37,564 nt of DNA from a virus (lineage: Duplodnaviria; Heunggongvirae; Uroviricota; Caudoviricetes), in IMG/VR virus record IMGVR_UViG_2684622670_000021, positions 1-37,564 of that record; one strand, written 5' to 3'. The number at the start of each line of letters is the position of its first letter. The first letter of the stretch is position 1. Shown here one piece after another: positions 2,713-7,315 of this stretch. A program made the position numbers and the translations under genes. The notes under the pieces were generated by a model. It was not told where the DNA came from and did no database searches. It saw only the letters and a list, made by a program, of their open reading frames with translations.

Positions 2713-3537
2713 TCAGGCGGTGAAAGTACCAATAAATGTTTCTACTTTGCTGTCCTTGAATTTCTCAACAAGCAGATCACGAAATTCGTTAGCCATTTCT
2801 TCCTGCACCGCCTCCAGCTGAATAATGCGTAGAACCAGTACAGGACGATCGCCAGTGATAATACTGAGGCGTAATTTAAACGGACGTTCTTTCAGACCTT
2901 CAAACGGAACGCATTTAAATTCAAATGCCACTGGCATAATGTCTTTGGTCTTCGCTTCGACAGACTCCATCAGGGAGCGTTTGCCGCTGAAGTCATTATC
3001 TTCAAAATCAGCGGTCTGGTTTGCTTCAATCGTGATTTTACGGACAGCCGCAGCCGCTTTTGTTGCCTGAATAGCGTCACCATTAGCATCAAAGCCCACA
3101 AGATAGTCGGCCCAGTCTTCAATCCATTCTGCCAGTGACTTCTGGGAGTTACGCTCGCCGTTAACAGACAACAGAGCAGAGAACGGTGCTGTCTTTTTCA
3201 GTTTGAGTGTGGCGGTGTTATCTGCGTGACCTGGTTCATCAATAGTACCCAGGTTAAGCACACTGACGGCACGCATATTATCAGCATCGATAAAGCAGCG
3301 GGTGCCTTCATCTGCAAGATCTTTAGAATAACGGGTAAAGTCATCGATGCTGGCAGTGGAAAGCGCACCACGGAAACGGAAGCGATTTAAATTAAATTTT
3401 TCCAGATCATGAATGCGGAAATTCTCAGGCAATGCCACAGCATCGGCACCAATCTTACTGATAATTTCATTAACACCCTGAGCAGAAATAAGGGCATGGA
3501 TTTGATTAATTGCGGTTGCGTCTAAGTTCTGAGACAT
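2713..3537 (-). CDS. DUF2303/YfdQ-like prophage protein
   Basis: 274-aa ORF in the leftward early operon; size and sequence character recall the YfdQ family of CPS-53-type prophages. Function unknown. Confidence 0.55.
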
Positions 3538-3602
3538 AATAAGTCCTCACTATATAAAGATATTCAGTGATGAGATAAATAATCAGTTAATTAAAAACGA
3601 TA

Positions 3603-3965
3603 TTAACGACCTGCTGCGCGGAGTTTTCCGTCAGGTTCACCGGCAAGAGTCAGTAACTGTCCCTGGTCTTCCTGCAGAATAGTCAGGCGACCACCGCGAT
3701 TGACATACATCGGCGTTTCGGTGGTGTCTTCTTCGGAAATTTTCCCGCGGTTAGTCGGGCGAACATATGAGAGTTTGTGTTTGATTTTCACTCGGTTCTC
3801 ATCAAACGGTTCGATTTCCAGGTTGAGCGAGACCTTACCTTTGGTTTTCGTGTTCATCACACCTGAAGCGACTTCACTGAGAACTGCGCCGATTTTGGTT
3901 TCAAATACGCCGCCGTCCAGCTCCCCGATAAATGCCTGCACATCAGTACTGCGTTCGCTAGCCAT
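3603..3965 (-). CDS. Hypothetical early-left protein (120 aa)
   Basis: Start chosen at the ATG preceded by AGGAG (MASERSTDVQAF...). The longer 226-aa ORF extends into GC-rich sequence that does not look protein-coding. Confidence 0.5.
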   Translation of the reverse strand: MASERSTDVQAFIGELDGGVFETKIGAVLSEVASGVMNTKTKGKVSLNLEIEPFDENRVKIKHKLSYVRPTNRGKISEEDTTETPMYVNRGGRLTILQEDQGQLLTLAGEPDGKLRAAGR

Positions 3966-4433
3966 TTTGCTGCTCCTCATCATATCGACCCTGCAAGGTC
4001 GGTTAGTTTCTCCACAAAACAGAGAAGAACACCTGCGGTGACTGCCGCCCGGATGGATTGGGTTATGAGCCCGTCGTCCGGTGATGCTCTTCTCTGTTTT
4101 GTAAAAAGGACGGTACCAGCCGGAAGCAAGGGTACAAGCTGGTACCGCCAAGACTACACACAGCATAAAGTTGTGGTGCCGGGTGCCTCCCGGTGCCTGG
4201 CGAAGGTTGCACACCAGGCGGGTGGGTATCCACAGAAGGTCGACTGTCAGCCTCAACCTTAACCCGCGTGCGCTGAGCCGCATTCACCACAACGCTAAGG
4301 ATTCTCTCTGGTTGAAAATACTTAGCTGTTATGTGCCTGCTTTTAGCCACATCAGGCGAGGTGGACCTAGTTATTCCCCAACAACAAGGATTCGGTTAAT
4401 CTGGTTATCCCCAACAACGCAAAAGGAAAAGAA

Positions 4434-4868
4434 ATGTCCGGTAATATCTATACGCTGTACAAATCCCACTGTGAAAATGTTGGAAAGTATCGGGGCATTG
4501 AAATCAGTGGGGTAGTGTCATCAGTCGAAATAAGCAAAGTTGAATCAAGGGCAACATTACTTACTCTTTTGGACCTTGTCTTACATGAGTACCGGAAGAA
4601 ATTCGGCACTCCCTATAATCAGTTGAATGGGAAAAAGGCTCTGGTTCACCTTATTCTGATGAAGCATCACTGGATGCCAAAACAGATTAATGAGATGAAA
4701 TTTGATGAACTTCTTCTTTCAATTCAGGATGAACTCACACTTGATAAAATAAGCGTAACCGCCCAGAAATTTTTAGATTATCGAGACTGGAGATCACAAA
4801 TTCATCACTTTGATGATTTTGACGAAAATGAATGGGATCCTAATTTGTCTGCACAATATCTAAAGTAA
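4434..4868 (+). CDS. Hypothetical protein (144 aa), rightward moron within the leftward early operon
   Basis: Strong SD (AAAAGGAAAAGAA then ATG); AT-rich relative to neighbours; opposite orientation to surrounding pL-operon genes; two 15-bp direct repeats immediately upstream. Confidence 0.5.
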   Translation: MSGNIYTLYKSHCENVGKYRGIEISGVVSSVEISKVESRATLLTLLDLVLHEYRKKFGTPYNQLNGKKALVHLILMKHHWMPKQINEMKFDELLLSIQDELTLDKISVTAQKFLDYRDWRSQIHHFDDFDENEWDPNLSAQYLK

Positions 4869-5046
4869 CATCCTGTGATAAAACCGTGATTTCCTGATCC
4901 AGTTTTTTTAAGGAGTCTATTGTTTCCTGTCGATAAGACAGCACTTCACGAAGCTGGTTTATAGCTGCCAGCTTCTTTGTCATCCACTCATAAATTTCCT
5001 CATCTGTGTAGCCAGGCGCGACGATTTTGGGTTCTGTTTTGTGCAT
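4840..5046 (-). CDS. Hypothetical small protein (68 aa), first ORF downstream of pL
   Basis: ATG preceded by AGGAG; 3' end overlaps the convergent 144-aa gene by 29 bp. Not arginine-rich, so not obviously an N-type antiterminator. Confidence 0.4.
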   Translation of the reverse strand: MHKTEPKIVAPGYTDEEIYEWMTKKLAAINQLREVLSYRQETIDSLKKLDQEITVLSQDVTLDIVQTN

Positions 5047-5105
5047 TTCACATCTCCTCAAGTTATCAGTTACTTGTTGATGGGGACCAGATTGTTAAAG
5101 AGCTA

Positions 5106-5131
5106 AGCGTCCTGTAGGGCGCTTTTTTGTT
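5106..5131 (+). terminator. Intrinsic terminator (7-bp GC stem, tetraloop, T5 tract)
   Basis: AGCGTCC-TGTA-GGGCGCT followed by TTTTTTG on the + strand; no T tract on the complementary strand. Confidence 0.5.
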
Positions 5132-5294
5132 GCTAACGAATCATCCTGGACTTCATATGCCCCAGGCGGCTACTTCGTGGGCGTCCTGCCTGTTCGTTTT
5201 TGACATTTACTGACTGCTTACGACACATGCACCGTGTTGCAACCAGATTTTGTTGTAATCCTGTAGTTGGTCTGGAACAAAAGATAAAATTAAA

Positions 5295-5331
5295 TTGCGA
5301 TATATGCAAGTGATGTTTGCGAAATATGCAA
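5295..5331. promoter_or_regulatory. OL operator region: two 15-bp sites TTGCGATATATGCAA and TTGCGAAATATGCAA
   Basis: Two near-identical imperfect palindromes (TTGCG-N5-TGCAA) 22 bp centre to centre, left of cI where pL/OL is expected; the same motif recurs in the cI-cro intergenic region. Confidence 0.5.
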
Positions 5332-5340
5332 ATTTATAGG

Positions 5341-5365
5341 TAATAAAAAGCCACCTTTCGGTGGC
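5341..5365 (-). terminator. Intrinsic terminator downstream of cI
   Basis: Hairpin GCCACC-TTTC-GGTGGC followed on the minus strand by CTTTTTATTA, about 20 bp after the cI stop. Confidence 0.5.
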
Positions 5366-5385
5366 CGATGGATGGGATATTGAGG

Positions 5386-6078
5386 TTAATTATGTCTCTT
5401 AAGGGTTTGCGACTGACTGATTAAGACCTTTCCAAAGACCATGAATCGGTGTTCGTTTTCGCTAGTAATTCCCCATTCACGGTAAATCTGGTTATCAGAA
5501 ATCACCAGCAGTTTGTCAGGAATCATTTGAAGTCTTTTAACGTATATTTTGTCATCAAAACCAAAGACATATATACCATCACCATCAAACTGATTGATGC
5601 TGACATCAACGAAGATGAGATCTCCTGGCTCAATGGTTGGACACATACTGTCCCCACGAACGTTGATAACTTTGATGTGATTGGCTGGTCGTCCGCCGAA
5701 CATTGATACAGCATTATCAGTTCTGTATTCGATGGCATGAATCACATCAATGACATCACCGCCCTGGATAAGGCCATTTCCCGCACTGGCACTGATATCC
5801 AGCATTTCAATACGGAACACATCCTTCACCTGCGCAACATCCTCATTATTACTGTTTTTATATACAGTATTACTTTTGTGGGCAGAGGTAAAGAGATCAG
5901 CAATATCAACACCTAAGCTCTTGGCAATATTACTCAGTGTTTGTTCGGTAAATTGTTTTTGCTTACCCGTTTCTAAGCGCGAGATGTTCGCCGCATCTAC
6001 TCCTATTGCTTCAGCGAGATCGGCGATTTTCATGTTCTTCGCTTGGCGAAGTTGTCTGACTCGGTTTCCTATGTTCAT
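5386..6078 (-). CDS. cI: Prophage repressor cI (HTH plus S24 LexA-like peptidase domain)
   Basis: N-terminal XRE-type HTH (QLRQAKNMKIADLAEAIGVDAANISRLETGK); C-terminal S24 motifs (Ala-Gly site in SASAGNG, catalytic Ser in GDSMCPTIEPGDLIFVD, downstream Lys); divergent from cro. Confidence 0.9.
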   Translation of the reverse strand: MNIGNRVRQLRQAKNMKIADLAEAIGVDAANISRLETGKQKQFTEQTLSNIAKSLGVDIADLFTSAHKSNTVYKNSNNEDVAQVKDVFRIEMLDISASAGNGLIQGGDVIDVIHAIEYRTDNAVSMFGGRPANHIKVINVRGDSMCPTIEPGDLIFVDVSINQFDGDGIYVFGFDDKIYVKRLQMIPDKLLVISDNQIYREWGITSENEHRFMVFGKVLISQSQTLKRHN

Positions 6079-6098
6079 GCGTTTATTACATTTCTTTA

Positions 6099-6165
6099 TT
6101 GCGTGATAAGCAAATCAACTTGCGCAAAATAATTGCGTGAAATAACATGCATAACGCGCAATATT
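6099..6165. promoter_or_regulatory. OR operator / pR-pRM region
   Basis: Contains TTGCGTGATAAGCAA (6099-6113, same motif as OL), the palindrome TTGCGCAA (6120-6127) and further TTGCG/CGCAA half-sites between the divergent cI and cro starts. Confidence 0.5.
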
Positions 6166-6175
6166 TGGAGGGCAT

Positions 6176-6436
6176 ATGCAATCACTATTACGAAATGTGC
6201 GTAAGGCGCATGGTTTCACTTTGCAGCATGTTGCTGCGGGTGTTCAAGTCAATCCAGCGACGTTGAGTCGTATTGAGAGGCTGGAGCAGATTCCATCTAT
6301 CGAGCTTGCAGAACGTTTAGCCAATTTTTTTAAGGGTGAAGTCAGCGAAATGCAGATTCTTTATCCGGCACGTTTTCAATCTAGCCAAAACCAGAATGGG
6401 TTTAAACCACAGGAACAGGAGGTGAACCGTGGGTAA
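6176..6436 (+). CDS. cro: Cro-like HTH regulator
   Basis: 86-aa ORF divergent from cI with SD GGAGG; HTH (FTLQHVAAGVQVNPATLSRIERLEQ). Confidence 0.8.
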   Translation: MQSLLRNVRKAHGFTLQHVAAGVQVNPATLSRIERLEQIPSIELAERLANFFKGEVSEMQILYPARFQSSQNQNGFKPQEQEVNRG

Positions 6437-6980
6437 GCATCACTGGAAAGTAGAAAAACAGCCTGAGTGGTACGTGAAAGCTGTCAGAAAAACTATCGCA
6501 GCGTTGCCGGGGGGGTACGCTGAAGCTGCTGACTGGCTGGATGTAACAGAGAACGCATTATTTAACCGCCTTCGTGCCGATGGCGATCAGATTTTCCCGC
6601 TGGGATGGGCAATGATTTTGCAACGTGCTGGTGGAACTCACTTCATTGCTGACGCTGTGGCGCAGTCTGCAAATGGCGTCTTTGTGTCTCTTCCTGACGT
6701 CGAGGATGTGGACAACGCCGATATTAACCAGCGCCTGCTGGAAGTCATTGAACAGATCGGCAGTTATTCAAAACAGATTCGTTCAGCAATTGAAGACGGT
6801 GTAGTGGAACCGCATGAGAAGACAGCAATTAACGACGAGCTGTACCTCTCAATTTCGAAGCTGCAGGAGCATGCAGCACTGGTCTACAAAATTTTTTGCA
6901 TTTCAGAAAGTAATGACGCCCGCGAGTGTGCAGCTCCGGGCGCCGTGGCGTGTCGTGACTGTGGAGAAACTAACGCATGA
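6429..6980 (+). CDS. CII-like regulatory protein (phage 186 CII / CP76-type), tentative
   Basis: GTG start with AGGAGG SD immediately after cro; position and size fit a CII-type activator. Family assignment is from memory only. Confidence 0.5.
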
Positions 6981-7315
6981 ACAGTTTAACAACACACTAC
7001 CGTCGCTCGCAACTGATTGCGCTTCCTGTACCGGGTGGAAAAGCGAAGGTGGAGTATTGCTATGCAGTAAATGTACCAGGTGACAGGGAAATTGTAACCC
7101 ACAGCTTTGCAGAGTGGGCTGTGGGTGATTTCAACCGGCAGAAGGAGACAGTCCTTTGCGACAAGTTAACCGCTGGTTCAAAGATCACTACGGAGTGCCC
7201 GTCAGAGTCATTCGTTGGGAGCCGGAAACACAACGGGTTATCTACCTCCGCGAAGGCTATGAGCATGAGTGCTTCAGCCCGCTCGAACAGTTTCGTCGTA
7301 AATTCAGGGAAATAG
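6977..7315 (+). CDS. Hypothetical protein, possibly frameshifted
   Basis: ATGA-coupled start. The N-terminal ~60 codons look protein-like but the C-terminal half is low-complexity, while an overlapping frame (7156-7335) encodes a protein-like peptide ending at the next gene's start. Confidence 0.35.

Follow-up and report, generated by a model that had tools for sequence, protein, structure and literature searches.

The subject of this study is a small rightward gene, encoding 144 amino acids (aa), in a stretch of 37,564 nucleotides (nt) of DNA from a virus of the Caudoviricetes (positions 1 to 37,564 of IMG/VR record IMGVR_UViG_2684622670_000021; the whole stretch is called the window below). 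The gene lies within the leftward early-left (pL) operon of a temperate phage, is antisense to that operon, and overlaps at its 3' end a convergent, YdfC-like gene of 68 aa. The arrangement is a variant of a known, sieB-like pattern, the antisense moron in a lytic operon. The gene belongs to an uncharacterised but widespread family with an orphan fold. What is new is that the two genes form a low-GC cassette in a conserved slot, that the pairing recurs across pL, pR and late operons, and that the partner never accompanies the unrelated cargo of the same slot.

Comparison with described systems

Morons are independent promoter-gene-terminator units that sit between the genes of lambdoid phages. 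The concept has been used in earlier studies (PMC7067206; PMC3851460). Like a moron, the cassette has a low GC content relative to its flanks, an intrinsic terminator of its own, an orientation opposite to the operon and a variable presence among related phages, with alternative cargos at the same site. It differs in having a second gene, on the other strand, between the open reading frame (ORF) and the terminator, in that leader and terminator belong to a slot shared by cargos and not to the cargo, and in that the leader holds no recognisable sigma-70 promoter.

The closest precedent is sieB/esc/sas of phage P22, together with sieB of lambda and Rac. SieB is a membrane protein. Its gene is expressed in lysogens and lies antisense in the pL operon near the repressor gene, a position shared by the 144-aa gene, for which we propose lysogenic expression as well. 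Expression of sieB is reprogrammed by an RNA from the lytic pL transcript (sas; PMC12197685), and through a second product the phage evades the exclusion that it imposes itself. In P22 this second product arises from an in-frame internal start, whereas the partner described here is a separate convergent protein gene. Membership of the 144-aa protein in the SieB family was considered and rejected, as Pfam-A, NCBIfam and PADLOC gave no match to SieB or to another exclusion protein and as it, unlike SieB, is modelled as a soluble helical protein without a transmembrane segment.

The partner has its own precedent in the Qin operon ydfA-ydfB-ydfC-dicF-dicB, where YdfC is without known function (PMC5069750). 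The 68-aa protein is about 40% identical to YdfC, and in both cases the gene is promoter-proximal in a repressor-controlled leftward operon and is followed on the same strand by a small RNA (sRNA), which in the window is an STnc100/PasD-like element with a weak DicF-like hairpin. The Qin-type operons have no ECs1072-family gene opposite ydfC, however, and the cassette region of the window has no dicB.

A relative of the 144-aa gene itself has been described in the Salmonella phage ST64B. This gene, STMMW_20121, is reported to be transcribed in almost all conditions from its own promoter, in lysogens and antisense to lytic genes (Owen et al. 2020, PMC7067206), and was proposed as an accessory or regulatory gene; the family, the YdfC-like partner and the recurrence of the pair are not noted in that paper. 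STMMW_20121 also encodes 144 aa, shares 30% identity with the window protein, matches phrog_5286 and NF033230 (167.5 bits), and overlaps convergently with the YdfC-like gene sb50/STMMW_20131, antisense to the surrounding lytic genes. In contrast to the window gene it lies between Q and the holin gene, in the late operon, and has a different leader with no STnc100 match nearby. Two further classes were rejected for the pair: type II toxin-antitoxin systems, since the genes are convergent with a 3' overlap and not co-directional, and catalogued defence systems, since neither protein matches a family of PADLOC-DB 2.0.

An antisense gene of the ECs1072 family and its convergent partner

The two genes and their overlap are as follows.
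4434-4868, + strand: 144-aa ORF of the ECs1072 family (NF033230 / phrog_5286), antisense to the pL operon
4840-5046, - strand (ATG at 5046, stop at 4840-4842): 68-aa YdfC-like ORF, sense to pL
4840-4868, both strands: convergent 3'-end overlap of the two genes, 29 bp

A preliminary description of this DNA had presented the 144-aa gene as the only rightward gene of the early-left operon, with a 29-bp overlap with the convergent ORF. Both points were borne out: all other genes from int to the repressor gene (5386-6078) run leftward, and the overlap has the coordinates given above. The description had also treated both ORFs as coding, and several lines of evidence agree with it. The 144-aa gene has a Shine-Dalgarno sequence, AAGGA, 6 nt upstream of its start. 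Its product scores 157.3 bits against NF033230 (the NCBIfam model 'ECs1072 family phage-associated protein', with a curated cutoff of 70 bits), residues 4-144 aligning with positions 2-142 of the 142 in the model, and matches phrog_5286 over its full length (1-144/144, E 1.8e-89). ECs1072 (ECs_5703) and five other homologues also exceed the NF033230 cutoff. For the 68-aa gene, AGGAG stands 7 nt upstream of the ATG, and the protein matches phrog_1744 from end to end (1-68/68, E 6e-35). It is 39-41% identical over 97% of its length to annotated YdfC of Qin-type phages (tblastn), and the YdfC-like proteins share the N-terminal motif EPxIIAPGYTDEElYEWM. Both genes are annotated by PGAP, the NCBI annotation pipeline, in Escherichia coli 90-1. 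Given the full-length PHROG matches of both ORFs and this annotation, the arrangement is not a chance pair of ORFs.

In an exhaustive HMMER search the family came to 72 representative clusters, with proteins of 145-155 aa, in whose alignment W134 is invariant and R54, L64, G66, A69 and H72 are near-invariant. The confidence of the AlphaFold2 (AF2) prediction for the 144-aa protein rose from a pLDDT (predicted local distance difference test score) of 45.6 with 4 sequences to 91.7 with a 55-sequence family alignment, and the resulting confident model predicts an all-helical soluble domain. A transmembrane segment is absent (maximum Kyte-Doolittle mean over 19 residues 0.84; grand average of hydropathy -0.45). 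A non-coding reading of the ORFs is ruled out by the depth of the family and this co-evolution-dependent confidence, together with the PHROG matches and the PGAP annotation. Remote homology and structure prediction, which the preliminary description had suggested, supplied a family and a confident fold; they yielded neither a functional homologue nor, in a Foldseek search against BFVD, any fold relative at E ≤0.001. Its comparison with exclusion or toxin genes finds no support in sequence or fold (Pfam, PADLOC, PDB profiles, Foldseek against BFVD): no Pfam or PDB match was obtained for either the 144-aa or the 68-aa protein, and no PADLOC-DB 2.0 family matched either at E up to 1.

The family gene is present in near-full-length form in 416 of 5,426 complete E. 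coli genomes, and relatives occur in phages of Shigella, Salmonella and Klebsiella. All 18 homologous loci lie in early or late regions of phages. In the deposited records of ST64B and several Klebsiella phages the family gene is unannotated, as in these two cases.
3281-3715 of ST64B (L004, AY055382), + strand: ECs1072-family gene, not annotated in the record
3345-3791 of Klebsiella phage KPP5665-2 (L005), + strand: ECs1072-family gene, not annotated in the record

The pairing and its polarity recur in three operon contexts

Eighteen lineages were examined for polarity, and 17 of these were assessable for pairing, L015 being cut by the end of its contig. Without exception, the ECs1072-family gene of these 18 lineages runs antisense to the operon around it, and any accompanying YdfC-like gene runs in the sense direction. 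This holds in pL-type contexts (the window, L006-L009, L016, L020, L143, L145), in pR-type contexts (ECs1072, now ECs_5703, of Sakai Sp4, as well as L018 and L146) and between Q and the holin gene (ST64B, KPP5665-2, L144). The Sakai gene, for instance, lies between a cII-like gene and a replication gene, antisense to pR.

A convergent YdfC-like ORF accompanies the family gene in 13 of the 17 assessable lineages, and the two overlap, by 29-317 bp, in all partnered lineages except L020, in which the YdfC-like gene is nearby without overlapping or adjoining. The overlapping partners are found in pL-type (L007, L008, L009, L047, L095, L143, L145), pR-type (Sakai Sp4, L146) and Q-to-holin contexts (ST64B, KPP5665-2, L144); the L047 type has the same 29 bp of overlap as the window, and the other lineages have 32-317 bp. 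Among loci that have the same leader as the window, the partner is present in 56 of 58 non-identical loci with ECs1072-family cargo and in none of 31 with the other cargo. Of the two partnerless loci, one runs off the end of its contig and the other has a truncated relative of 98 aa. When counted by distinct protein lineage, the figures are 3/4 against 0/15 (Fisher p 0.004).

These findings bear on the simplest alternative, that an ordinary moron and an ordinary early gene merely travel together as independent genes, with overlap and antisense read-through as by-products of packing that have no regulatory effect. Each gene is indeed found without the other, the L020 genes are not adjacent, and both the extent of the overlap and the length and sequence of the YdfC-like tails that form it are variable. 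We nevertheless think this explanation improbable, because the pair recurs at 25-40% identity in three operon contexts with the same relative polarity throughout, because in one and the same slot the partner occurs only with ECs1072-family cargo, and because the conserved terminator described below lies beyond the partner and not between the genes.

A conserved terminator lies beyond the partner gene

Three elements define where a rightward transcript would end.
5105-5131, + strand: intrinsic terminator for rightward cargo transcripts, part of the slot framework
4950-4975, + strand: strong hairpin with a weak U-tail, internal to the YdfC-like ORF, a possible early stop or pause
5092-5103, - strand: rrn-type boxA GCTCTTTAACAA, a nutL-like site directly 3' of the terminator hairpin on the pL transcript

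The terminator has a stem of 8 pairs, 5 of them GC, at 5105-5124, followed by TTTTTTGTT, and the T-run reaches 5131. The folding energies are -11.5 kcal/mol for the + strand and -7.5 kcal/mol for the - strand, where a G.U pair becomes an A.C mismatch. The block at the end of the slot, consisting of the complement of boxA, the hairpin (AAGCGTCC-loop-GGGCGCTT) and the T-run, is conserved in 95 of 99 assessable related loci; two of the other four have a single substitution in the boxA complement. Across the 95 loci the stem and the T-run are kept while the loop varies, and the G.U pair favours the + strand. The terminator is thus not specific to the 144-aa gene. It stands 7-26 nt from the stop codon of the alternative cargo and 219 nt from that of the 144-aa gene, the longer interval being occupied by the YdfC-like gene. 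Any rightward transcript that stops at the terminator would be complementary to the 68-aa gene over its full length, ribosome-binding site included, and we regard this placement as the best internal evidence, from sequence, that the transcript crosses the gene entirely.

The preliminary description had reached the same geometry, and in this it was right, but it had taken the element at 5106-5131 to be the only terminator on the + strand. A canonical terminator is present there; it is not the only + strand hairpin, since the one at 4950-4975 is more stable (-15.6 kcal/mol, z -3.8). On this basis a different reading can be framed, in which the main role of the hairpin at 5105-5124 is in the pL transcript, where it forms a nutL-like stem-loop with boxA, and rightward RNA ends at 4950-4975, covering only the 3' two-thirds of the 68-aa gene. 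The boxA is exact and occurs once in the window (0.18 expected at ≤1 mismatch); it directly adjoins the hairpin and is conserved with it, the internal hairpin is the most stable local structure, and analogous terminator-like + strand hairpins lie within the partner ORF in ST64B and KPP5665-2. However, the hairpin at 5105-5124 is the weaker on the - strand, its T-run is conserved though a role on that strand does not need one, the alternative rightward cargo has its stop codon directly before it, and the tail after 4975 (CTTTGTCATCC) is a poor U-tract. We therefore consider this reading very unlikely, and the two roles of the hairpin are not mutually exclusive.

The pair forms a low-GC cassette in a conserved cargo slot

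When the window is aligned with SfIV, SfII and SfV, the flanks are shared up to ~4366 and again from ~5135, which places the borders of the cassette at ~4367 and ~5136. SfII, SfV and many E. coli prophages carry other genes between the same flanks, and the GC content of the interior is 35-39%, as against 47-55% in the flanks. The accessory cassette at 4367-5136 thus occupies a cargo slot that is conserved in this part of the early-left operon, with pL on one side and the remaining genes of the operon on the other. The slot has these further parts.
4332-4433, + strand: conserved leader (LCE), with the presumed expression signals of the rightward cargo
4347-4364, + strand: leader hairpin, within the LCE
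4370-4385 and 4404-4418, + strand: direct repeats GTTAT(T)CCCCAACAAC, within the LCE
4384-4391, + strand: CsrA-like motif ACAAGGAT, within the LCE
4423-4427, + strand: Shine-Dalgarno sequence AAGGA, within the LCE
4398-4417, no strand assigned: inverted repeat on either side of the cassette, left arm (repeat search)
5074-5093, no strand assigned: right arm of the same repeat (repeat search)

The leader also carries A-rich, ARN-like repeats, and its RNA folds less strongly than shuffled controls do (z +1.4). At least 120 IMG/VR contigs contain a 27-nt pattern taken from the leader, which precedes two unrelated cargo families, either the ECs1072 family or phrog_1244, the latter comprising proteins of 147-208 aa with a coiled coil and a CxxC...CxxC (zinc-ribbon) motif. 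A scan of 11 homologous upstream regions gave no convincing sigma-70 promoter for the window-type leader. A plausible promoter, TTGCCA/TTCACC-N16-TGnTATTCT, is present in L020 and, by eye, in SfII and SfV, and is broken in the window type by ~7 extra bases. The inverted repeat, of ~20 nt, has one arm in the 5' leader and the other just before the terminator and is kept in every cassette variant examined, with either cargo; its core, GGATATCC, is itself palindromic. It could join the 5' and 3' untranslated regions by base pairing, fold the cargo portion of the pL transcript into a loop, or be a site of cassette exchange.

Two observations on relatives of the slot are added here. In the metagenomic prophage L008 a CsrA homologue (PF02599; 2-169, - strand) directly adjoins the ECs1072-family gene, and is noted alongside the CsrA-like GGA motifs of the window-type leader. 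In SfV, AAAAGGAAAATCAAATGACT provides a Shine-Dalgarno sequence and ATG right after the shared left flank in the alignment (L003 ~2560-2600, + strand), which suggests that the SfV slot holds an unannotated rightward ORF where the record annotates only the leftward orf33.

A homologue is transcribed in lysogens

In ST64B the ECs1072-family ORF at 3281-3715 of L004, which is 435 bp long and lies 162 bp from the holin gene, corresponds to STMMW_20121 and overlaps STMMW_20131 by 71 bp. The published RNA-seq data for STMMW_20121 give 60-270 transcripts per million (TPM) in 16 of 17 conditions, as against 0.3-33 for holin (Table S5, PMC7067206). In the two conditions that the authors link to induction of ST64B, its level drops from 269 TPM (InSPI2) to 113 and 105 TPM, and that of the YdfC-like partner increases from 108 TPM to 148 and 258 TPM (Table S5, PMC7067206). 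Taken by analogy, these shifts of population averages fit the reciprocity that would be predicted for the window pair. For the family member of Sakai, detection of ECs1072 on arrays in uninduced cultures (PMC2241611) is weak evidence of expression in lysogens.

STMMW_20131 is itself probably driven by a constitutive promoter-like site just upstream. The ST64B pair stands between a promoter-like site downstream of sb49 (4038-4011, - strand) and a - strand terminator at 3196-3177, and would thus lie inside what looks like a late-operon leader.

A proposed model of alternating expression

Most likely, in our view, the 144-aa gene has an accessory role and is expressed in the lysogen, in alternation with its pL-driven partner. 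In the lysogen, the repressor would silence pL, and the 144-aa gene would be transcribed rightward from signals in the leader at 4332-4433. The rightward mRNA would cross the entire YdfC-like gene, including its ribosome-binding site, and end at 5105-5131, just before OL/pL. Upon induction, transcription from pL, equipped with boxA, would proceed leftward. Its products would be the YdfC-like protein and a transcript complementary to the 144-aa mRNA along its full length, and expression of the 144-aa gene would then fall through collision of polymerases and pairing of the RNAs. The two genes would in this way mark opposite states, the 144-aa gene lysogeny and the YdfC-like gene lytic growth, and the 144-aa protein most likely acts in the lysogen in an accessory (moron-type) function. 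The evidence above establishes that both genes are real, and it establishes their geometry, the terminator, the cassette borders, the conserved pairing with its polarity and the transcription of a homologue in lysogens; for the window copy itself we infer the promoter, transcription in the lysogen, the interference and any phenotype.

The preliminary description had predicted mutual interference of this kind. Its observation is confirmed, and its interpretation is partly supported, on the one hand by the antisense polarity, which is conserved in 18/18 lineages and three operons, and on the other, by analogy, by the 30%-identical ST64B homologue reported as transcribed from its own promoter in lysogens. 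It had not recognised the 68-aa ORF as a YdfC homologue belonging to the same mobile cassette, the conservation of the pairing, or the boxA beside the terminator hairpin on the pL strand.

Several points weigh against the model. The expression data concern a 30%-identical homologue in a different operon, the shifts seen there on induction are no more than about two-fold and are population averages, and the ST64B partner, STMMW_20131, is also well expressed in lysogens, so that strict mutual exclusivity does not hold there. A consensus scan found no sigma-70 promoter in the leader or on the + strand at 3500-6500, and the hairpin at 4950-4975 could stop some rightward transcripts early. The C-terminal tails of the YdfC-like proteins, which form the overlap, are variable in length and sequence; because they are not conserved, the overlap itself may be a packing effect, which does not apply to linkage and polarity. 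The partner is absent from L006, L016/17, L018/19 and L131, and in Qin-type phages YdfC occurs without an ECs1072-family partner and is followed by dicF and dicB; the coupling is therefore not obligatory. Finally, searches of Pfam, PADLOC, NCBIfam, PHROGs and PDB profiles with the window protein and 55 family members returned only 'unknown function'. Taking both sides together, we hold the whole model to be evenly balanced between right and wrong.

An explanation at the level of the proteins has also to be weighed. Here the gene expressed in lysogens would encode an effector, for exclusion, abortive infection or growth inhibition, and the YdfC-like protein, made solely from the phage's lytic promoter, would neutralise it and so permit development of the resident phage; the pair would form a defence with self-immunity. 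The linkage of both families is conserved and their polarity to the lytic operon is fixed; the cassette occupies a variable accessory slot and has the low-GC signature of a moron. In L016/L017 the family gene adjoins kilR, near the repressor gene, the position that sieB holds beside kilR in Rac. The SieB/Esc/sas system of P22 offers a precedent (PMC12197685). Yet searches of PADLOC, Pfam and the PDB matched neither protein, YdfC is often found on its own, it is missing from four of the family's lineages, and the ST64B partner is expressed in lysogens too. In view of this we regard an antagonist pair as unlikely.

Phage setting and neighbouring features

By its gene content the window is a temperate phage of the SfII/SfIV/SfV- and CPS-53-like type. 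Its leftward genes are int, xis, genes of the yfdT/R/Q/P type and one DUF2303 gene, and the rightward block beyond the repressor gene holds cro, a cII-like gene and replication genes. The features around the cassette are listed below.
1-1164, leftward: int (ORF list, annotation)
4100-4323, - strand: STnc100/PasD-like sRNA (Rfam RF02076, 43.4 bits, E 2.7e-7)
5135-5198, - strand: conserved ~65-nt element in the right flank of the slot, just downstream of pL (alignments)
5295-5331, - strand: OL operators and presumed pL (two 15-mers, TTGCG-N5-TGCAA)
5349-5366, - strand: terminator of the repressor gene (terminator scan)
5386-6078, - strand: cI-type repressor (helix-turn-helix and Peptidase_S24; Pfam domains)

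Two 15-bp palindromes of the OL type, TTGCGATATATGCAA at 5295-5309 and TTGCGAAATATGCAA at 5317-5331, match an OR site, TTGCGTGATAAGCAA, at 6099-6113 between cI and cro. From this match we infer that OL and pL lie left of the repressor gene, just right of the 5105-5131 terminator. The 5135-5198 element is common to SfII, SfIV and SfV despite their different immunity regions, and is found at 84-97% identity in phages of Yersinia, Pantoea, Citrobacter, Klebsiella, Cronobacter, Pectobacterium and Salmonella. A role as a structured antiterminator RNA found no support in its single-sequence fold, which is unexceptional (z -0.47). No N-like gene was recognised in the window phage; together with the conserved boxA, this suggests that early antitermination may be boxA/Nus-based.

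The STnc100-like element lies directly downstream of the cassette on the pL strand, with a weak DicF-like terminal hairpin at 4108-4162; its 43.4 bits are below the RF02076 gathering score of 47. The long ORFs drawn across it (3603-4283, 4171-4515, SfIV_34/35) are probably spurious. An STnc100 match also stands beside the gene pair in KPP5665-2, in the same relative position (L005 3028-3223, 108 bits), and in L007 (46.2 bits). In L007, a relative of this prophage from E. albertii, matches to isrK (64 bits) and the C4 antisense RNA (82 bits) fall at 3464-3652 (+ strand), within a Phage_ASH-type pR gene that spans 3104-3940; neither RNA has a match at 3000-7000 of the window, where the equivalent place holds a different gene.

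Implications

A broader and rather doubtful reading, which we would not expect to prove correct, is that the two genes together are a portable 'state switch' of two components, able to insert with fixed polarity into any lytic operon, whether pL, pR or late. The product of the antisense, ECs1072-family gene would act during lysogeny as an effector of orphan fold, such as a novel protein for exclusion or abortive infection, that of the sense, YdfC-like gene would be its antidote during lytic growth, and convergent transcription would make the two genes mutually exclusive. If this were true, the slot would be a dedicated platform for cargo expression in enterobacterial prophages, made up of the unstructured leader, the bracketing inverted repeat, the terminator with boxA and the 65-nt element.

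For YdfC, the product of a long-standing y-gene, the pairing is the first contextual clue. The conserved cargo slot could be mined for further accessory genes of prophages. As for the ECs1072 family, a gene that is always antisense to a lytic operon, usually tail-to-tail with a YdfC-like gene, and transcribed in lysogens in at least one member is a testable candidate for a lysogeny function with a built-in off switch.

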